DNA of 64,000 bases, taken from contig JAIELV010000001.1 of NCBI GenBank assembly GCA_019752595.1, positions 120,486-184,485 of the forward strand, read 5' to 3'. Below, in pieces: positions 1,469 through 45,424 of this stretch. How positions within the stretch are numbered: position 1 is the stretch's first letter; each line of letters starts with the position of its first letter. The notes beneath the pieces are model-generated. The model worked only from the letters and a program-made list of their open reading frames with translations, was not told where the DNA came from and did no database searches. The translations under genes were made by a program, and so were the position numbers. This DNA comes from Patescibacteria group bacterium (GTDB lineage: Bacteria; Patescibacteriota; Minisyncoccia; Phycocordibacterales; Phycocordibacteraceae).

Positions 1469-2950
1469 GTGATTATGCCGAAAGCAGATGTGATTATCCG
1501 ATTCGAGGACGTCTCGTTTGAATTCAGTCATATTCACCCAATAGTGACGGGGGCAAGCTTTCCTATACGACGTGGGGCAAAAATAGCCCTGATGGGTCAG
1601 AACGGCGCAGGTAAAAGTACCTTATTCGGGCTTATAACGGGCACGCACACACCTGATTCGGGTAGGGTGATTATTGAGAAGGGGGCTACGATTGCAACCG
1701 CGCGCCAGGTGATACCACGCTCGGAAATGGATTTGACGGTGCGTGAATTTTTCCAACTCTGCTTTCCGAAAAAAGTCTATGACATCGACCCGCGTATCGA
1801 CAAAGTGTTGGAGGTAGTGAACCTGCACGTACATTCTCATACACCAATTTATGACCGTCACATTAAGACATTCTCAGGCGGGCAGCAGGCTCGCTTGCTC
1901 TTGGCGTCCGCCTTGATTCAGAATCCTGACATCCTGCTTCTGGACGAGCCGACCAACAATTTGGATAAAGCGGGAATTGAACATCTCACTGAATTTTTGA
2001 TCGATTACAAGAAAACAGTCATTGTTATTTCACACGACGCGACATTTTTAAACGCGTTCACGCAGGGGGTTCTGTATCTTGATGTATTTACAAAAACCGT
2101 AGAGCAATACGTCGGTACGTACACGGACGTGCAGGCTGAAATTATTGTCCGCATTGAACGCGAGAACATAAAGAACGCGCGACTAGCAAAAGAGATTCAG
2201 GCGAAAAAAGACCAAGCGAATGTGTTCGCGCAGAAGGGAGGCCAGATGCGTGTAGTGGCAAAACGCATGCGCGAAAAGGCTGAAACTTTGGAAGAAGAAA
2301 AAGTGGACGTACGAAAAGAAGATAAAACTATTCGACCTTTCGTTATTCCTTCGCAGCCCGAGTTGGTGGGGGAGGTGCTGACGATAACCAGCTATTCAAC
2401 GCTAAATCCAAAAACACACAAAGTGGTGAATCATAAGGCTGACATAAAACTTAAAAGGAGGGACCACCTGCTGTTATCGGGGCCGAACGGTATCGGTAAA
2501 AGCACTTTGTTGGAGTCGATTGCAAACGGAACGGCAGAAGGCTCGGTTATTTCAAAAGGTGTTCGAGTAGGGTATTACCGACAGGATTTTTCCACCTTGA
2601 ATTTTAATGACACGGTCTATGACTCGCTTTTGGGTGTCATGGAAAAAAAGATTGAGGAAAATTTGCGCTCAACCGCCAGTGGCTTCCTGATAACAAGAGA
2701 AATGATAGGTTCGAAAATCGGTTCTTTGTCTGAAGGGCAGAAGGGGCTCGTAGCGTTTGCGCGCTTGGTTCTACAGAAACCTGGGCTTCTGATTCTGGAC
2801 GAGCCCACAAACCACATTAACTTCCGTCATTTGCCCGTCATTGCAAAGGCGCTTCACGAGTACGAAGGGGCAATGATTTTGGTGTCGCACGTGCCAGAGT
2901 TCGTCGAGCAAATCCGTATCGACGATACGTTGGCCTTAGATAAAAAATAG
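1469..2950 (+). CDS. ABC-F family ATPase (two tandem ABC domains, no TMD)
   Basis: Two Walker A motifs (GQNGAGKST, GPNGIGKST), two signature/Walker B regions (LLLDEPTN, LILDEPTN), 493 aa. Confidence 0.85.
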   Translation: MIMPKADVIIRFEDVSFEFSHIHPIVTGASFPIRRGAKIALMGQNGAGKSTLFGLITGTHTPDSGRVIIEKGATIATARQVIPRSEMDLTVREFFQLCFPKKVYDIDPRIDKVLEVVNLHVHSHTPIYDRHIKTFSGGQQARLLLASALIQNPDILLLDEPTNNLDKAGIEHLTEFLIDYKKTVIVISHDATFLNAFTQGVLYLDVFTKTVEQYVGTYTDVQAEIIVRIERENIKNARLAKEIQAKKDQANVFAQKGGQMRVVAKRMREKAETLEEEKVDVRKEDKTIRPFVIPSQPELVGEVLTITSYSTLNPKTHKVVNHKADIKLKRRDHLLLSGPNGIGKSTLLESIANGTAEGSVISKGVRVGYYRQDFSTLNFNDTVYDSLLGVMEKKIEENLRSTASGFLITREMIGSKIGSLSEGQKGLVAFARLVLQKPGLLILDEPTNHINFRHLPVIAKALHEYEGAMILVSHVPEFVEQIRIDDTLALDKK

Positions 2951-2973
2951 CCCTCAAAGGGCTATTTCAGTGA

Positions 2974-3099
2974 CTATTTTCTTCTCTTTTTACTCGCTTT
3001 TGCTGCAAGCATTGCCTTCTTTGCGGCAAGGCGTTTTGCGGTTTTGTGCGGTTTTTTGTACCACTTTAATGAGCTGACGCCGTGGCTGTTATTTCCCAT
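2974..3099 (-). CDS. Possible small basic protein (41 aa)
   Basis: MGNNSHGVSSLKWYKKPHKTAKRLAAKKAMLAAKASKKRRK; not in ORF track (<60 aa); highly basic, ribosomal-protein-like composition; could be spurious. Confidence 0.25.
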   Translation of the reverse strand: MGNNSHGVSSLKWYKKPHKTAKRLAAKKAMLAAKASKKRRK

Positions 3100-3133
3100 A
3101 GTTCTTTTTATTAGCGGGTATGCCCCCATGATA

Positions 3134-3240
3134 CTACCCGCGGAGCATTTAAGGAAAATACATCGCCCTCTTTAGGGCGTTTTGTATTTTCTTAAATGCG
3201 AACGCGGGCAAGCCTGTGCAAGTAACAGGCGCTCAAGCGG
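3134..3240. repeat. 107-bp inverted repeat, left copy; begins with a copy of the tRNA 3' end (ctacccgcggagca)
   Basis: Reverse-complement of 5869..5977 with 2 mismatches, determined by direct alignment. Confidence 0.85.
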
Positions 3241-3330
3241 AACATGGACTCGTCGCGACCGCGGGAACCTGGTTCCGTAGGAATCCAGGTTACAAACTGA
3301 ATGCCTCTACGGACATGCCTCGTGTAGGTT

Positions 3331-3849
3331 TTATGTCCTTTGTGACGCTCGGGCAAGATATTCTGAAAGCGCGATACCAATGGCAGCAAGGACAAACAGC
3401 ACATGGATACCGACAACAAACATGATTTCGGTTGTCGGAAGGCTACCTTCCAAGTACGTCTTGAGTGCATGAACTCCTGAGATAGAAATTATTGCAAATC
3501 CAAGCTTGAGTTTCAGGTTGTAGGTATTCACATGGTCCAACCAATCGGGCTTCGAAATAGTCTTTCCTTCAAAGTGGTCATTCGTCACGAACAGTGAAAA
3601 TCCTGCGAGCGCCACGACCCACACGAGCTGAGCAACCATGGTTATGTCTACCAGTTCTAAAACTTTAATGATGAGATCTATCTTCGCAATCTCTTGGCCG
3701 AGCACGGAGGTGATGAGGTAGGGGATCTCCGAAAGGAACCTCCAAAGAATCGCCACCAGAATGACAACCAGTCCCATGTAGAAAAAGGACATCAGAAAGC
3801 GCATCTTAAAAAGCATCCCTCCAATGAATTCAAGTGCAGATTTTTCCAT
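3331..3849 (-). CDS. yqhA: UPF0114 / YqhA-family inner membrane protein
   Basis: Blocks LELVDITMVAQLVWVVALAGFSLFV, LKLKLGFAIISISGVHALKTYLE and MFVVGIHVLFVLAAIGIALSEYLAR align to E. coli YqhA; start set at MEKSALEF. Confidence 0.65.
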   Translation of the reverse strand: MEKSALEFIGGMLFKMRFLMSFFYMGLVVILVAILWRFLSEIPYLITSVLGQEIAKIDLIIKVLELVDITMVAQLVWVVALAGFSLFVTNDHFEGKTISKPDWLDHVNTYNLKLKLGFAIISISGVHALKTYLEGSLPTTEIMFVVGIHVLFVLAAIGIALSEYLARASQRT

Positions 3850-3965
3850 AGTGTTATGCATGCTACAGGTAACCAAAAGAACTGGCAATCTTTAAGTTTC
3901 TAATTCGCCAAAGACGAATACCTAAGGGTTTCCTGCGCCCGCATTTTGCGCTATAGATAGATCAT

Positions 3966-4385
3966 ATGGCGAGTATTGAGGTATTTAAAGCGCTGGTAGG
4001 AGAGGCAGTAGAAGACATGAAGAAGCTGCCCCCGCCGCTTGTGCGTATCGCAGGCCCGCTGAGGACAGGTGGTGATGGGTACGAGACGAATTTGCAGCGT
4101 TTGAAGCAGGGGGAAGCACTTCTCCGAAGTCGCGGGCTTACTGTTTTTGGCTATACAGGAAAATACGCAGATGCTATCAAAGCAGCGTACGACTTACATT
4201 TCGAACATTTTCATATTCCTATTCTTAAGACGGGCCTCATTCAGTCAATCTTTTTTCTTCCCAAGTGGGAGGAGAGTAGGGGTGCTGCTTATGAACGGCA
4301 ACTGTGCACCGAGCTCGGGGTTTCGATAGGCGACATTAGTTATGAAGAACTTTCTGTATTTGAATCGGAATCTCGGGGTTCATAG
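3966..4385 (+). CDS. DUF4406-like (nucleoside 2-deoxyribosyltransferase-like) protein, often phage-associated
   Basis: VRIAGPLRTGGDGYETNLQRLKQGEALLRSRGLTVF matches the N-terminal IYIAGP...motif architecture of DUF4406. Confidence 0.4.
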   Translation: MASIEVFKALVGEAVEDMKKLPPPLVRIAGPLRTGGDGYETNLQRLKQGEALLRSRGLTVFGYTGKYADAIKAAYDLHFEHFHIPILKTGLIQSIFFLPKWEESRGAAYERQLCTELGVSIGDISYEELSVFESESRGS

Positions 4386-4494
4386 GAAATTAAATCTTTC
4401 ATTTCCGTCTGCTGGAGGACTTTGTTTCTTTGAGAGCGAAGCGAACTAGGAAACAAGAACTGCTCGCGTGGTACGAAGTTAGGGCATCTTTTAT

Positions 4495-5265
4495 CTATCC
4501 TTTAGCTAGCATACGTGCTGTTGGGATTGCGTCCAGCACGTTGGGTCGAGTCTGGGCGGCTTTATAAAATGCCTTAGACTCTCTAGAATATCTATACAGC
4601 GCACCACGAGAGACTCGAGGCCAATGTTGGCGGTAGTAATTTATCATTTGCTCATCTGTCATTGAGGTCCAATTTTTTTTGACGCGAATGATTGCAGCGA
4701 GAACTTCTGGGCGCTTGTAGGCGACTTCATAAAATGTACAGGACTCATTTGAAAGAATTTGCAACTTACCGCGTGAGACTCCAGGCCAATGTCTATTGTA
4801 GTGCTCAATCATCTGCTGGTCAGTCATCGAAGTCCAGTCTGTTCGAGCGCGCTCGATAGCGTCGAAAACGCCTGGTCTCCGCGAAGCAGCTTGATAGAAA
4901 GCGTTTGCAGCCCTCGAAACTGAAGGGAGCTTCCCTCGAGATATACCGGACCATTCAGCGCGGTAGTATGCCAACATTTCTTCGTCGGTCATCGACTCCC
5001 AATCATTTAAGGCGCGAGGAATCACCTCAAGGACTCGCGGCCTCCTATATGCAGCTCTGTAGAAAGATTCCGCCTCCCGTGAAAGTTTTTGAAGGCGGCC
5101 TCTCGTGACTCCTGGCCAATGTTTATTGTAGTAAGCAATCATCTTTCTGTCGTTCAACAAATACCATCTTGCGCGTTCATGCGCGATTTGCTCACTAATT
5201 TTAAGTGCAGGATTGGTCGCTTGTTGGTCGCTCTCTACATGTAAAAGCTCTTTACGAGTCATCAT
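4495..5265 (-). CDS. Tandem-repeat protein (about 5 repeats of ~51 aa), unknown function
   Basis: Repeating unit W-SMTDEEMLAYYRAEWSGISRGKLPSVSRAANAFYQAASRRPGVFDAIERA recurs with variation across 256 aa. Confidence 0.5.
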   Translation of the reverse strand: MMTRKELLHVESDQQATNPALKISEQIAHERARWYLLNDRKMIAYYNKHWPGVTRGRLQKLSREAESFYRAAYRRPRVLEVIPRALNDWESMTDEEMLAYYRAEWSGISRGKLPSVSRAANAFYQAASRRPGVFDAIERARTDWTSMTDQQMIEHYNRHWPGVSRGKLQILSNESCTFYEVAYKRPEVLAAIIRVKKNWTSMTDEQMINYYRQHWPRVSRGALYRYSRESKAFYKAAQTRPNVLDAIPTARMLAKG

Positions 5266-5398
5266 CTCAAACTAACAGGAATCGCGTGCATAGTCATCTT
5301 GAATGCCTTTAGAGTGCACGCGTTTGTTCTCTGGGTATTATCGTCCCGCGAGCGCAGGTTATAAAAATAATAGCGTCACAAGGACGCTTTATTTTCTG

Positions 5399-5411
5399 TA
5401 ACTGCTCCGCG
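5399..5411. repeat. Third copy of the tRNA 3'-end core (tgctccgcgggta), direct with respect to the tRNA
   Basis: 13-nt exact match to 5963..5975; lies between two CDSs inside the inverted-repeat-bounded segment. Confidence 0.6.
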
Positions 5412-5452
5412 GGTAACTAGGGTTTTCGGCGCTCGCGGTGAAGAAAATTTAC

Positions 5453-5857
5453 TCAATCACCTCTAGTCTGGAGGTCAGATAGCGAGTATGGAATTGGTTT
5501 ACTTTCACCAGGAATCACAACGTAGCGAATGTTGCTATTGTTTCCTACGGACTCTACGACTCCTTTTTGGTTAAAAAATACACTCGCGCGCTTTTGTATC
5601 AGCACTTCAGTTCCAGGTGAGAATGGGACATCATCCTTCTTTTTGTATTTTCTGTCTCTTGGTTTCCAAATACCGTTTTCGTAGTTATTCAATGTTACTG
5701 CCAGGCTCCTCGTAGATCTATTTAGTTTTTTCGCAATATCCGATATCTGTGCCCCCTGCACTTTTTCTAGTAGGGCGCCCTGTATTTCAGATTCTGTGTA
5801 AAATCGTTTTTCCCGCGGCATCCACAGCACTTTACATTCTTGAATAATATCGTGCAA
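5453..5857 (-). CDS. Hypothetical HTH-containing protein
   Basis: 134 aa; segment AQISDIAKKLNRSTRSLAVTLNNYENG looks like an HTH; flanked by direct 13-nt att-like cores. Confidence 0.4.
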   Translation of the reverse strand: MHDIIQECKVLWMPREKRFYTESEIQGALLEKVQGAQISDIAKKLNRSTRSLAVTLNNYENGIWKPRDRKYKKKDDVPFSPGTEVLIQKRASVFFNQKGVVESVGNNSNIRYVVIPGESKPIPYSLSDLQTRGD

Positions 5858-5868
5858 ATGACTTTACT

Positions 5869-5977
5869 CCGCTTGAGCGCCTGTTGCTTGCACAGGCTTT
5901 CCCGCGTTCGCATTTAAGAAAATACAAAACGCCCTAAAGAGGGCGATGTATTTTCCTTAAATGCTCCGCGGGTAGGA
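5869..5977. repeat. 107-bp inverted repeat, right copy (tRNA 3' end plus its 3' flank including a hairpin)
   Basis: Pairs with 3134..3240; contains the tRNA acceptor 3' strand plus terminator-like gccctaaagagggc. Confidence 0.85.
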
Positions 5978-6227
5978 CTCGAACCTACAACCAACTCCTT
6001 ACACTGATTCCCAGAGTTTCCTAAGGGCGTGGACTATATCACGACCGGTTCTCGGTCTTTCGGTATCTAGTCTCTACGGCGCTCGGAACGTAAAAACGTT
6101 CCGTTCCCTCGGTGTTAGCGTAGCCGAAGCGTTAGCGTTCACCGATATCCCGAAATTTTCGATACGGATTCCTCCGTAAAGCTGCCTATGCTGACAGGGA
6201 GCTGCTCTACCATTGAGCTACCGCGGA
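5964..6227 (-). tRNA. Intron-containing tRNA; mature form most consistent with tRNA-Asn(GUU), with an Asp(GUC) or Thr(UGU) register alternative
   Basis: 5' half UCCGCGGUAGCUCAAUGGUAGAGCAGCUCCCUGU and 3' half (U)AAGGAGUUGGUUGUAGGUUCGAGUCCUACCCGCGGAG form a canonical cloverleaf with a 7/5/5/5 stem pattern, U1-A72 and discriminator G, separated by ~192 nt. Confidence 0.75.
5999..6193 (-). ncRNA. Group I (IC3-like) self-splicing intron in the tRNA anticodon loop
   Basis: Contains GCCGUAGAGACUAGAUACC, matching the conserved GUAGAGACUAGA P7/J8-7 core of Azoarcus/cyanobacterial tRNA introns; also AAAUUUCGGG and CCUUAGGAAAC resemble the P5 and P9.0 regions; exon ends with U, intron ends with G in the Asn register (6002..6193). 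Confidence 0.65.
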
Positions 6228-6469
6228 ATGAAAGAACTTTTTATTCTGCGGTGCTCAAAAATTGAGCTACCACAACGAGCGAGGAGCAACGCGAACGTGT
6301 ACGTTCATGGTGTCCGAGCGACGTTGGGGGAAGGCTGGCGCAAAGCCAGACTTACCGCGGAACAGGGGTAATAGTACTTAAAAACGAGCCTTTTGCCAAC
6401 AGAGGTTCTTAATAAAGAATCAAAAAACCGTCTCTCTGAAAACACCTCGAACGTTGCTATAGTTTCTAC

Positions 6470-6880
6470 ATGGGAGAGAATCTGAAACCAAAAGTAGAAG
6501 CGGTTGTGAAGCCTGAAAAGGGAGGGCTTTTAGAAATTACAGACCAATTAACCGATGCGCGTATCGCGCATGCGGAGTTGATGCGCAGAAGTCAGCACGG
6601 GCAGAATGAGCTCGTTATACATAAATTTGAGGTAGCACCTGAGTATGAAAATATGGGTTTCGGAAAAATGCTGATGGACAGCATTAAGGAAATCCTTCGA
6701 AACGAAAAACGCGTGGGCATGCTGAGTGTGCATGCTTCAAATCGAAACGCGCAGGGCTTCTATGAAAGCCAAGGATGGGAATTTGAGGATGCGGAAGAAA
6801 ATGAAATGCCAAACCGCGGGCAAAGCGCGAACAACCTGCAACGCTGGATGATATACGAAACTCCAGACGAAGAAGACTAG
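6470..6880 (+). CDS. GNAT-family N-acetyltransferase
   Basis: FEVAPEYENMGFGKMLM...AQGFYESQGWEF matches the acetyl-CoA binding motif A/B arrangement. Confidence 0.6.
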   Translation: MGENLKPKVEAVVKPEKGGLLEITDQLTDARIAHAELMRRSQHGQNELVIHKFEVAPEYENMGFGKMLMDSIKEILRNEKRVGMLSVHASNRNAQGFYESQGWEFEDAEENEMPNRGQSANNLQRWMIYETPDEED

Positions 6881-9722: not shown

Positions 9723-10967
9723 ATGAAACACACATTTGTAGTCTCTCTAGCAATTGTTTTGTCTCTTTTTGTATCTACTAATGCCTTTGCGGACCACGAC
9801 GCAACTGGAGCTTCATCAGAGGCCCATACCACTACGTCTACGACTGGAGGCACGTCTGCATCGGGCGGAACTTCGGGTAGCGCTGCAAGCGGAAGCACGC
9901 AAACGACATCCGCAACGTCTGTGACTGTAACGGCCGTTCCAGTAAAGATGGAAGTTGAAATCGAAACTGAAAACGGCGTACAGACAACGACCGTGAAGCC
10001 TGATAGCTCATCAGCGCCTACGTGCGGGGGCAAGGAAATGCCAAAACTTGAATGTCCGTCAGGATATGCAGTTTCGTGCAATACAGCAATCAGTCAGTGG
10101 GCATGTTTGAAAAGCGCCGCTTCAGCCGATACGCGCACGGGAGTTTCAACAGGCGCAGGTGCCGCGGCAGGTGCTACATCGGTGAAATATCTTGACCAGG
10201 ACGATGATAACGACGGTGTAACCACCGTTCTTGAAGACAGTGCTGTGAAATCATCGATTTTCATCAAATTAGGTGACGTAAAGGGCGAGTCTGAAGACGA
10301 TAAGGCTGCCGCCTCTGATGTATTCATCAAATTTGGCGGCGTTGATGGAGAAAGCACAAAGGGTGCTGTCCCAACAGAAAGTCAATTTGAAATTTTGATT
10401 GACTCAAAAAAAGTGCGCGGATGGGACCCGAAGACAAAAGAAGAGGTTGTAAAGATCGCTCCGAAGTCTGCCGCAGATGTTTCCGATGAGGAAGAACTCG
10501 CACTCTTTGTTGCTGCGATTTCTGCTGACGACCCACGCATGGAACAGATTTCGTTGAACTTCACGAAGATTGAGTTCAAGTATCGTTCTGACGCAAAACT
10601 GTTCGGACTCATCCCGTCCTCTCTTCTACAAGACGTATCTCTTGAGGGTGGTGCAGTAAACTTGAAGAAGCCATGGTACTCGTTCTTGTTTAGTGGTGTC
10701 ACTGACCTCGACGACCTCGCGGCGGCTGCGCAAGCAACTAAGGACAAAGGCCACAAAGATGAGATTGAAATTCTTTCATGGAGTTTCGGTGCAAGTAATG
10801 CGGGGAGTATGTCTGCAGGCAGTGGCGGTGGAGCAGGTAAAGTGAATATCGCTGTTGGCGACGTGAACGGAGACGGCGTAGAAGATATTACACTCGCTGG
10901 ACTCGCTACCAACTTTGCAATTCTTCTTGATACTGTGAAGTCGGCTCACGAAGAAAGCGGAAAGTAG
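9723..10967 (+). CDS. Secreted Hcp-like (T6SS tube protein fold) domain protein with permuted motif order
   Basis: Sec signal peptide, S/T/G-rich linker, then FIKLGDVKGESEDDK (x2), ISLNFTKIEFKY and GHKDEIEILSWSFGASNAGSMSAGSGGGAGKVNIAVGD; compare Hcp1 FIKIGDVKGESKDKTHAEEIDVLAWSWGMSQSGSMHMGGGGGAGKVNVQDLSF and LNFAQVQVDY. Confidence 0.6.
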   Translation: MKHTFVVSLAIVLSLFVSTNAFADHDATGASSEAHTTTSTTGGTSASGGTSGSAASGSTQTTSATSVTVTAVPVKMEVEIETENGVQTTTVKPDSSSAPTCGGKEMPKLECPSGYAVSCNTAISQWACLKSAASADTRTGVSTGAGAAAGATSVKYLDQDDDNDGVTTVLEDSAVKSSIFIKLGDVKGESEDDKAAASDVFIKFGGVDGESTKGAVPTESQFEILIDSKKVRGWDPKTKEEVVKIAPKSAADVSDEEELALFVAAISADDPRMEQISLNFTKIEFKYRSDAKLFGLIPSSLLQDVSLEGGAVNLKKPWYSFLFSGVTDLDDLAAAAQATKDKGHKDEIEILSWSFGASNAGSMSAGSGGGAGKVNIAVGDVNGDGVEDITLAGLATNFAILLDTVKSAHEESGK

Positions 10968-14594: not shown

Positions 14595-14614
14595 GAATCA
14601 CAGGATACTAGAAA

Positions 14615-44377: not shown

Positions 44378-45424
44378 ATGGAAATGCTCCTCATCGGTCT
44401 GGTAATAGTACTTCTTTTGGTAAACGCTGGGGTAGTTTTTCTGCTTATGTCACGCTCGGGCAAAAAGGACGACGGGCAGGGCTTGAGCCTTATTCAACAG
44501 CAGATTGCCGAACTGACACGCACATTGGACGCGCGCGTGGCGGACTCCTCAAAACAGATGAACGATTCTATGCGGTCGCAATTGTCAGAATCTGCAAAGA
44601 TGATTCGTGATGTCACGGAGGGATTGACGAAGCTTGATGAGACAAACCGCCAAGTGGTTTCTTTTGCCGATCAACTACAGAACCTGCAGGACATTCTAAA
44701 AAATCCGAAACAGCGTGGAATTTTAGGCGAGTACTATCTAGAAACCGTTTTGAAGAACGTCATGCCTCCAGGTAGTTTTCAGATGCAATACGCATTCAAA
44801 AACGGAGAAATTGTAGACGCCGTTGTTTTCATGCGCGACCACATTATTCCGATTGACTCCAAGTTCTCGCTCGACAATTACAACAAAGCAATCGGTGCAC
44901 GAGAAGGAAGCGATAGGGAAGCGTTTGAAAAAGCATTTAAGCAAGATTTGAAAATCCGCATCGACGAAACCTCAAAATATGTTCGCCCCGAAGAGAACAC
45001 CATGGAATTTGCGTTCATGTTCATTCCGTCAGAGGGCGTGTACTACGACCTCTTGGTGAATCAGGTGGGAACTATGAAGACAAACACGCGGGATTTGATT
45101 GAATACGCATTCAGTAAGAAAGTAATCATTGTTTCTCCGACGTCGTTCTTGGCGTATCTGCAGACAGTGCTCCAAGGCTTGAAATCGCTTCAGATAGAGG
45201 AACAGGCAAAAGATATTCAGAAGCGGGTGGGGGAATTAGGTAAACACTTGGGAAGTTACGAGGAGTACATGAAGAAGCTTGGGGTCACACTTCAGACGAC
45301 CGTGAACCACTACACCGCGGCGTACAAGGAATTCGGAAAGATAGATAAGGACGTCATGCGCATATCGGGTGAGTCTGCAGGAGTCACACCACTCGCGGTT
45401 GCAGGGCCGAATAACGAGGAGTAA
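44378..45424 (+). CDS. rmuC: DNA recombination protein RmuC
   Basis: N-terminal TM, long coiled-coil, C-terminal RmuC nuclease-like domain (VIIVSPTSFLAYLQTV). Confidence 0.8.
   Translation: MEMLLIGLVIVLLLVNAGVVFLLMSRSGKKDDGQGLSLIQQQIAELTRTLDARVADSSKQMNDSMRSQLSESAKMIRDVTEGLTKLDETNRQVVSFADQLQNLQDILKNPKQRGILGEYYLETVLKNVMPPGSFQMQYAFKNGEIVDAVVFMRDHIIPIDSKFSLDNYNKAIGAREGSDREAFEKAFKQDLKIRIDETSKYVRPEENTMEFAFMFIPSEGVYYDLLVNQVGTMKTNTRDLIEYAFSKKVIIVSPTSFLAYLQTVLQGLKSLQIEEQAKDIQKRVGELGKHLGSYEEYMKKLGVTLQTTVNHYTAAYKEFGKIDKDVMRISGESAGVTPLAVAGPNNEE

Follow-up and report, generated by a model that had tools for sequence, protein, structure and literature searches.

Several described systems come close to the locus reported here, a block of small genes next to a tRNA-Asn gene in a 64,000-nucleotide stretch of the genome of a Patescibacteria group bacterium (GenBank assembly GCA_019752595.1, contig JAIELV010000001.1, positions 120,486 to 184,485). 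This whole 64-kb stretch is called the window below, and positions are given in its numbering unless a contig is named. Cis-mobilizable elements (CIMEs), known from the ICESt1/ICESt3 literature, have att-like direct repeats, contain neither integrase nor excisionase, and presumably rely on a recombinase provided in trans. Integron arrays are made up of single, mostly co-oriented open reading frames (ORFs), and an imperfect palindromic site, conserved at its ends and variable in the middle, lies behind each of them; clusters of attC sites without an integrase also exist. At tyrT of Escherichia coli, a tRNA-Tyr gene is followed by repeated units containing the tRNA 3′ end, with a gene for a small, very basic protein nearby. 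In the tycheposon islands of Prochlorococcus, newer insertions adjoin the tRNA gene and older ones are pushed outwards (bioRxiv 10.1101/2020.12.28.424599).

The locus of the window contains an inverted repeat, the two arms of which enclose 2.6 kb of sequence. The reading we favour, with about even confidence, is that the arms are two copies of a junction module in a hypervariable small-gene block that lacks a recombinase. The block lies between the gene for tRNA-Asn(GUU) and a pair of genes formed by a conserved basic 41-residue gene (b41) and a DUF4406-like gene, in one clade of Parcubacteria. The additive tRNA-linked islands with partial-tRNA repeats (tycheposon islands, CIME accretion) are the closest known systems, with integron cassette arrays as an analogue. 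Like the tycheposon islands, the block is adjacent to a tRNA gene, contains scattered partial tRNA 3′ ends and differs in content between close relatives. Unlike them, it shows no integrase or integrase remnant, its units are single genes of about 0.5–1 kb instead of multi-gene elements, and it has structured junctions of about 100 nucleotides (nt) with an inverse core, a second family of sites that overlaps stop codons, and one inverted copy at a secondary site. With CIMEs it shares segments flanked by att-like repeats and without an integrase, although no related autonomous element turned up, its units are far smaller and present in greater number, and the block is known here from sequence comparison. 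The likeness to integrons consists of single ORFs each placed before a structured site, the ORF often running into the site for its stop codon (TTCTAAC), and of a fixed platform. This platform, however, is the tRNA 3′ end, the hairpins double as terminators, the end pairing of the attC type does not seem to be conserved (as judged by eye), and the ORFs tested gave no match to IntI or tyrosine recombinases. Finally, tandem copies of tRNA 3′ end plus spacer downstream of the tRNA gene, as seen in the related contig L082, and a small basic gene nearby are reminiscent of tyrT, the units of which are, in contrast, near-identical tandem duplicates without intervening genes, inverted copy or variation in gene content.

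The arms of the inverted repeat span positions 3134–3241 on the forward strand and 5868–5975 as the reverse complement. They are 108 nt long and 98% complementary, with two mismatches (3209/5900 and 3223/5886); a chance match of this length is not expected in 64 kb. An earlier note on this DNA, made from its letters alone, had placed the repeat at 3134..3240 and 5869..5977 with two mismatches, and the repeat is real, with slightly refined borders. The note had also described an arm as the tRNA 3′ end plus a flank of about 95 nt. Each arm does contain 12–13 nt of the tRNA gene and about 95 nt of flank, but it is more than that, namely a recurring structured module. The 13-nt core of the repeat, TACCCGCGGAGCA, has three exact copies in the window (3135–3147 on the forward strand, 5403–5415 and 5962–5974 on the reverse strand), where 0.04 copies are expected; none of 100 shuffled sequences reached three. 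The third copy had been noticed before, at coordinates that were 4 nt off (5399..5411). It stretches to 35 nt at 83% identity without gaps (5381–5415) and, with gaps, to a whole module of 92 nt (5325–5416).

Two Logan contigs (run SRR15085116) are 100% identical to positions 3179–4952 and 5930–4939. Each of them carries its own arm-specific variants, linked to its own inner flank, and both end exactly where the 31-mers become common to the two arms. The variants and inner flanks of these independent contigs make it extremely unlikely that the repeat is an assembly artefact, whether collapsed, the case that the earlier note had named, or chimeric. The arms are, furthermore, probably shorter than a typical short read, and the same kinds of modules are present in related genomes. 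What speaks for an artefact is that the source is a metagenome-assembled genome and that the outer junction of the left arm is supported by the submitted assembly alone, while the inner junctions are also present in the independent contigs.

Each arm is one complete structured junction module of about 108 bp. The module consists, in this order, of the tRNA 3′ core, a long hairpin with an intrinsic, bidirectional terminator at its tip, an inverse core, a second hairpin and a degenerate core. It starts with the last 13 nt of the tRNA region, which are the core itself. The CCCGCG of the core pairs with a downstream CGCGGG, and the long hairpin is closed by the inverse core TGCGnnCGCGGG. The end of the module is formed by the second hairpin and another core-like sequence (...GCGGAG). 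In the left arm, the core reads CTACCCGCGGAGCA, the terminator at the hairpin tip is located at 3164–3179 and the inverse core is TGCGAACGCGGG (3197–3208). At the inner end of this arm, the second hairpin (GCCTGT/ACAGGC) is followed by the degenerate core CTCAAGCGGA. The predicted fold of the left arm has an energy of −58 kcal/mol and a z-score of −7.6. The same long hairpin folds in all three window copies and in the modules of L082 and L130, with z-scores against shuffled controls of −4.1 to −7.6, and the terminator scan gives matches on both strands in all three window copies.

When eight modules are aligned, GGAGCA and TGCG..CGCGGG are invariant, and 7 of the 21 hairpin pairs show compensatory changes. 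The modules fall into three types. Type A comprises the third window copy, unit 1 of L082 and L205 11560–11655 (80–86% identical), type B comprises unit 2 of L082, the L130 module and L207 8932–9030 (83–86% identical), and type C comprises both window arms; across types, the identity is 62–86%. The third copy is 85% identical to L082 1755–1848 (90% over 72 nt by BLAST) and the arms are 77–81% identical to the same stretch. A covariance model built from the eight-module alignment (R1) gives strong matches in the window (three), L082 (two), L130, L205 and L207, and also in L224, which is outside the training set (95.8 bits). In L204 the matches are weak, with E-values of 0.0055 and 0.043, and nothing among some 70 further tRNA-Asn loci, or in the 1.1 Mb of sequence surrounding ABC-F genes, scored better than an E-value of 0.037. 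Among the loci scanned, the module is found only in relatives sharing the DUF4406-like gene. Within the window, its copies are confined to the tRNA-Asn island.

Syntenic contigs were found via homologues of the DUF4406-like gene (L082, L204, L205, L207, L221–L223 and L224). They share a common frame of b41, the DUF4406-like gene, variable small genes and the tRNA-Asn gene, with SWIB, p60 and other shared genes beyond. The genes between the DUF4406-like gene and tRNA-Asn differ in the window, L082, L204, L205 and L224, and those after the DUF4406-like anchor also differ in L207 and L221, contigs that end before the tRNA gene. In the window, a gene for a repeat protein is followed by a helix-turn-helix (HTH) gene. 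L082 has a gene for a 323-residue protein, L204 a racemase gene, L205 five genes, L224 four genes, L221 genes for a GNAT protein, a glyoxalase and a protein of 138 residues, and L207 genes for proteins of 153, 104 and 98 residues, with more beyond. The earlier note had proposed a comparison with related genomes for presence and absence, and in this comparison the region turns out to be polymorphic, with a different gene content in every relative examined. The block genes of the relatives are separated by junction modules or by a second site, site2, which often overlaps the stop codon of the preceding gene. A scan of genome contigs with the ABC-F gene as anchor gave 80 loci (best amino acid identity 80–81%), none with the window neighbourhood; the ABC-F relatives are all from Parcubacteria or Paceibacteria genome bins. 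Look-ups of the exact ABC-F (two start codons), GNAT and TrhO proteins gave no match. A metagenome scan with a tRNA 3′-half pattern gave another 80 loci, which served as negative controls for the module and were also the source of L130. None of them shares proteins with the window, except for a weak 26% match to TrhO in L158. Three scans of viral contigs (with site2, with the inverse core plus core and with the type-C hairpin) returned nothing, or high-GC chance matches only.

In L082, the tRNA gene is followed directly by a type-A module and then by a second tandem unit, without a gene in between (cores at 1756, 1836 and 1921); modules of the same architecture follow tRNA-Asn in L130. In the window, two direct repeats of the tRNA 3′ end (5403–5415 and 5962–5974) bracket inserted DNA, with the tRNA gene intact. 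As the earlier note had it, the third core brackets the HTH gene, which is the only gene between the two direct cores. The 547 nt between these cores (5416–5961), made up of the type-C flank of the right arm and the HTH gene, are absent at that place in L082. Since the tRNA gene of L082 is located directly before the homologue of the third copy, the right arm and the HTH gene have the appearance of DNA inserted between the two direct cores. To its left, the third core resembles the second core of L082 in context, and to its right the first, as would be expected from an insertion at the core that moves the older end outwards; the third copy behaves like an older, displaced tRNA end. The stretch homologous between the window and L082 is bounded on one side by the site at the stop codon of the swapped gene (window 4482) and on the other by the type-A module.

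The tRNA flank of L224 (6307–6430, compared with window 5867–5990) agrees with the right arm at all 124 nt (100% identity), whereas the DNA identity between the window and L224 is 73% in the ABC-F gene and 72% in the DUF4406-like gene. The identity of type-C modules in such divergent genomes points to a recent exchange of the module between lineages, or else to very strong constraint. The L224 flank continues like the sequence after the left arm (6284–6415 compared with window 3265–3134, 95.5% identical over 132 nt). The left arm together with 3242–3300 therefore represents the full flank array, and in the right arm the HTH gene truncates the array at the degenerate core, the point at which its own upstream region begins.

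A second place of insertion lies between b41 and the DUF4406-like gene. These genes adjoin each other in L205, L206, L207 and L221–L223, and the region between them is 82–95 nt long and empty in L205, L207 and L221. In the window, this region contains the left arm and the gene for a YqhA-family protein. The left arm starts 35 nt upstream of the b41 ATG, directly after TACTAC (3132–3137). In L082, a homologue of the HTH gene (59–60% identical) separates b41 from the DUF4406-like gene, and its insertion also begins directly after TACTAC. By this comparison, the HTH gene occupies both hot spots, in different genomes. In L205 (14597–15228), the tRNA gene, with an intron of 194 nt, is flipped with respect to the DUF4406 and p60 sides, judged against the arrangement of the window and L082. 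With an oppositely oriented core module at 14597, the tRNA body is enclosed by inverted cores, together with a small YHYH-type gene. The flipped tRNA gene shows that inversions occur over evolutionary time.

The second site, site2, belongs to another family of tRNA-end-like sequences, with the tRNA-sense consensus GGTTCTAACCTCGTCYAGCAGACGGAGCA. Strong copies are present between unrelated ORFs in L205 (three), L207 (four), L204, L130 and L224, and decayed copies are present in L082 as well as in the window. Several unrelated ORFs terminate inside site2, on ...TTC TAA. At L082 3021–3038, L130 1577–1607 and L205 11640–11672, unrelated ORFs end in this way within the conserved site GGTTCTAAC, so that the site supplies the last codon and the stop codon; integron attC sites often likewise supply them. 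In three cases, site2 is followed by a hairpin of type A (L204 and L205) or type B (L207). The TTCTAAC at its 5′ end fits six of the seven positions of the attC motif RYYYAAC, and the complementary GTTAGAA at the 3′ end is not conserved, as judged by eye. Two other identities were considered and dropped: by eye, there is no likeness to dif/Xer-like sites, and the pairing in site2 that would correspond to a T-arm is poor for a tRNA-like punctuation in RNA processing.

Together, these comparisons support the reading of the locus as a hot spot of recombination that is built from tRNA 3′-end copies. Of the nested or decayed integrations at a tRNA att site that the earlier note had suggested, the hot spot on tRNA 3′-end copies remains, while a decayed prophage or integrative and conjugative element was rejected: the units are single small genes, and integrase and phage genes are absent from the ORFs tested and from the related loci. 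In the proposed mechanism, new DNA would join at the core that adjoins the tRNA body. The incoming unit would bring its own core and terminator, the tRNA would stay intact and the older end would be pushed outwards. The newest unit of the window would be the right arm with the HTH gene, and the third copy the older end. The left arm and the YqhA gene would be a recent copy of the type-C module array, inverted and located at the second hot spot, just upstream of b41. The enzyme would most likely be a site-specific, probably a tyrosine, recombinase, with its gene in another part of the genome or on a helper element. We infer this order of events, the site-specific enzyme and its location. Site-specific recombination in trans is favoured because conserved cores are present at gene boundaries, because an exchange point falls inside the 13-nt core and because the same nucleotide position has been used again.

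Several observations weigh against this mechanism. No recombinase was found in about 30 window ORFs tested (five between the arms plus neighbours, and 20 further ones), the window covering 64 kb out of 831 kb of genome, and no integrase, recombinase or phage gene is listed for the related loci either (gene tables with Pfam annotations, about 55 kb). This agrees with the earlier note, which had seen no recombinase in the segment. The related loci number only about eight, mostly on short contigs, and the site2 copies of the window itself are weak (nhmmer E-value 0.12). Cores are lacking at the ends of the HTH insertion in L082, and a crossover within the core thus does not suit all of the events. 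For the YqhA insertion, the d-side end could not be fixed. No scheme that we tried, whether single inversions, a circular permutation of the island or one integration at TACTAC, led from L082, L205 or L224 to the gene order of the window with both junctions, nor did any brief sequence of standard integrations, excisions or inversions starting from a relative. Excised circles or alternative orientations were not seen, though no search could be aimed at them. Lastly, ordinary homologous exchange could likewise use conserved modules of about 100 nt as its arms.

The main rival explanation is exchange of this homologous kind, by way of the conserved modules. These would be conserved intergenic terminators that happen to supply about 100 nt of homology to RecA, so that DNA arriving from relatives would replace or add genes, and the repeat would have arisen by ectopic recombination or gene conversion. 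This is possible, although we consider it unlikely. In its favour, conserved sequence flanks the gene swaps on both sides and no recombinase was found in the ORFs tested; with identities of 62–86% across types and 100% between the window and L224, the modules are long enough for RecA within one type only. It fits less well with the third core, where a left side like the second core of L082 is joined to a right side like the first, which puts the exchange point within about 13 nt of identity. Neither does it account for two independent insertions that start at the same TACTAC, or for exact 13-nt cores kept at the junctions while the module interiors differ by type, and the insertion of the left arm into the intergenic region needs an overlap of only four nt (CTAC). 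This short overlap at the left junction would suit an inverted duplication by template switching during replication at a long quasi-palindrome, without any dedicated system, as would the hairpin of about 55 nt on which the arms are centred. Such an origin is nevertheless quite improbable, given that the duplicate is 2.6 kb away, at a site also used in L082, and that modules of this architecture are also found at the gene boundaries of several genomes.

The modules might instead be non-autonomous repeats, similar to REPINs (doublets of repetitive extragenic palindromic, or REP, sequences) or to miniature inverted-repeat transposable elements, that copy themselves next to sequences ending in CGGAGCA, with the genes as bystanders. 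In favour of this, the modules form hairpins of about 100 nt, with inverted ends that are conserved and interiors that vary; tandem units without a gene between them (L082) and a type-C module that is identical in two divergent genomes would also fit. We nonetheless think this improbable: the window has modules in this island only, its three copies represent two types instead of one expanding family, the ORFs tested include no RAYT (REP-associated tyrosine transposase) or other transposase, and the gene-by-gene differences bounded by sites would be left unexplained. The 2.6 kb enclosed by the arms can in principle flip, given the inverted orientation of the arms and their identity of 98%, and a programmed invertible segment, in which a recombinase flips 3242–5867 between the arms for phase variation, would agree with the long, near-identical repeats that bound the segment and with the flipped tRNA gene of L205, which shows that inversions at cores occur. 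In contrast to invertase-driven elements, however, there is no invertase nearby among the ORFs tested, the 108-nt arms are far longer than known invertase sites, which are short, and the arms carry bidirectional terminators, not promoter-like sites. No promoter-like sequence is present in the arms or flanks that a flip would connect or disconnect, the tRNA is intact either way, which leaves nothing obvious to be switched, and there is no obvious dependence of the segment genes on sequence beyond the segment. The one orientation of the assembly fits both Logan contigs, though these are compatible with the existence of the other. Terminators without promoters, the lack of a nearby invertase and genes with no obvious need of outside sequence make a programmed switch very unlikely, and flipping is probably a by-product of recombination.

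Table 1. Features of the tRNA-Asn island and adjoining sequence, in window coordinates.
Feature	Position	Strand	Basis
Conserved 41-residue basic gene (b41)	2974..3099	-	Codon comparison; junction comparison
Left arm, type-C module	3134..3241	+	Repeat; fold; terminator scan on both strands; covariance model R1, 94 bits
Left array extension	3242..3300	+	Inverse core CGCGACCGCGGG (match 3254-3265), hairpin AACCTGG/CCAGGTT, decayed core
UPF0114/YqhA-family membrane protein, 172 residues (Logan gene call)	3331..3849	-	Pfam E-value 1.7e-24
Inverse-core-like, loop and decayed-core piece	3905..3945	-	Weak: match 3932-3943 and comparison by eye with L082 1814-1848
DUF4406-like gene, 139 residues	3966..4385	+	Pfam 20 bits, below the cut-off of 22; contexts in relatives
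Two decayed site2 copies	4404..4490	+	Between the repeat-protein and DUF4406-like genes; nhmmer E-value 0.12 at 4404-4419, weaker at 4473-4482
Repeat protein, 256 residues	4495..5265	-	Four repeats, 55-residue period
Third copy, type-A module	5325..5416	-	R1, 83.3 bits; core 5403-5415, terminator hairpin 5372-5388
Inverse-core-plus-loop piece CACCGCGAGCGCCGAAAACCCTAGT	5416..5452	-	Between the HTH stop codon and the third core
HTH gene, 122 residues, ATG at 5821 (NCBI K2P56_00670)	5453..5821	-	Gene call; predicted structure
Right arm, type-C module on the tRNA-Asn body	5868..5975	-	R1, 93.5 bits; inner end is the degenerate core
tRNA-Asn(GUU) gene with 192-nt intron assigned to group I (6002-6193)	5963..6227	-	ARAGORN with introns; intron-less L082 orthologue
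Promoter-like site (6399-6371) and leader of about 120 nt before the tRNA	6245..6399	-	Promoter scan; L082 match; direct repeat

Three of the smaller pieces need some comment. The third copy has its inverse core TGCGCTCGCGGG at 5345–5356 and contains a decayed second core. The inverse-core-plus-loop piece next to it resembles the piece before the second and third cores of L082 (L082 1802–1848 is 83% identical to window 5448–5403). The piece at 3905–3945, located between the upstream region of the DUF4406-like gene and the YqhA start, may in part be native intergenic sequence.

The intron-containing tRNA gene that the earlier note had seen adjoining the repeat is tRNA-Asn(GUU), with an intron of 192 nt between anticodon positions 35 and 36. 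The gene is not detected by default ARAGORN or by Rfam, and Rfam, at gathering thresholds and at E-values up to 10, gives no tRNA, group I intron or other family in 2900–6500. With introns allowed, ARAGORN reports c[5963..6227], mislabelled as Thr(tgt). L082 has an intron-less tRNA-Asn(gtt) orthologue (1695–1767) with exons identical to those of the window tRNA, which identifies the latter as Asn(GUU). The position at 35/36, together with exons that give an intact tRNA, points to a group I intron. Related introns of 190–545 nt are present in L205, L146, L138, L063, L071 and others. Group I introns at position 35/36 of tRNA-Asn have been described in Patescibacteria, where self-splicing was shown and where such intron-bearing tRNAs escape standard tools (Nakagawa et al. 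2026, PMC13011429). The window tRNA carries exactly this kind of intron and was likewise missed by standard tools. A text search of the same paper gave no mention of inverted repeats, integrases or duplications around these tRNA genes, whereas the window locus has module repeats.

The promoter-like site (TTGGCA, 17 nt, TACTAT) is about 145 nt upstream of the tRNA, and window 6371–6404 matches L082 1529–1496. At its start, the leader repeats the tRNA 5′ end (TCCGCGGTAAG), and it closes with D-arm-like and acceptor-like pieces (site and leader correspond to L082 1496–1694). Its terminal pairing differs on both sides between the two genomes, CCGCGG/CCGCAG versus CCACGG/CCGTGG, and a fragment of the leader element is also present downstream of the L082 module array (1966–1998). 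Elsewhere, the tRNA-Asn 3′ half is present in L116 as two direct copies separated by 7.4 kb (2568–2592 and 9937–9961), possibly the ends of an integrated element, and in L130 an HNH-endonuclease-like ORF (475–873) is located just upstream of tRNA-Asn.

Family searches of the genes (Pfam, PHROGs, NCBIfam) gave only UPF0114 and two weak matches (DUF4406 and HTH), and no replication, packaging, transfer or excision genes. The HTH protein (NCBI K2P56_00670, encoded in a contig 831,433 nt long), previously given as 134 residues, has 122 residues when read from the ATG at 5821. Its predicted structure (predicted local distance difference test score, pLDDT, 79) consists of a three-helix HTH followed by an SH3/KOW-like barrel, a fold that matches the carboxy-terminal domain of NusG (NusG-CTD), PsaE and NdhS. 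On this model, the protein is not a recombinase. A 7-nt direct repeat, GAGTAAA, is present at both ends of the HTH segment and may be due to chance. The repeat protein contains the motif W.SMTD....YY..HWPG.SRG.L in four repeats with a period of 55 residues, not 51 as first noted. Tandem Repeats Finder detects no tandem repeat in its gene at the DNA level, and the protein has no family assignment, its PHROG matches being weak only. In L082, the slot of this gene holds the unrelated 323-residue protein.

The enclosed genes had been noted as including a phage-associated family. In all relatives found, the DUF4406-like gene is a conserved anchor at the inner edge of the variable region, which makes it a fixed gene and not phage cargo, and the PHROG matches are weak. 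The idea that it could be a hidden recombinase was dropped, as it matches a deoxyribosyltransferase-like family only. The b41 protein (MGNNSHGVSSLKWYKKPHKTAKRLAAKKAMLAAKASKKRRK) is very basic and has no family match. Compared with L221, its codons show 17 synonymous and no non-synonymous changes, indicating strong purifying selection; a 51-residue ORF in the mechanical ORF list is b41 with a start that is too early. On the 5′ side of the tRNA, a GNAT gene (6470–6880, forward strand) has a 68% homologue in L221–L223 (L221 1174–1569, reverse strand), directly after the DUF4406-like gene. Its orientation relative to the window is the opposite in L221–L223, another sign of rearrangement across the tRNA. 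Far from the island, the window contains an RmuC-family gene (44378–45424, forward strand, Pfam E-value 5e-55). In E. coli, this family has been connected with the restriction of inversions at short inverted repeats.

Patescibacteria have tiny genomes with few recognised mobile elements, and the routes by which they gain or swap genes are poorly known. If plain recombination between repeated terminators is the cause, the locus would be a modest example of a hypervariable intergenic hot spot. A bolder proposal, which we make tentatively and think rather doubtful, is that this Parcubacteria clade has an integron-like cassette system, with the tRNA-Asn 3′ end as its platform and with structured modules of about 100 nt (tRNA-end core, terminator hairpin, inverse core) plus the stop-overlapping site2 as cassette junctions, in which single genes would be captured, shuffled and sometimes inverted by a recombinase encoded elsewhere; the identity of the type-C modules, in genomes whose genes are 27% divergent, would then reflect recent horizontal movement. 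To our knowledge, integrons have not been described in this phylum, and the block, if confirmed, would resemble integron cassette arrays there. As the intron hides the tRNA gene from standard tools, islands of this kind are easily missed. If the favoured reading is true, a compact, tRNA-anchored block that exchanges one gene at a time via structured junctions would be a concrete and testable route of gene flow in these bacteria.

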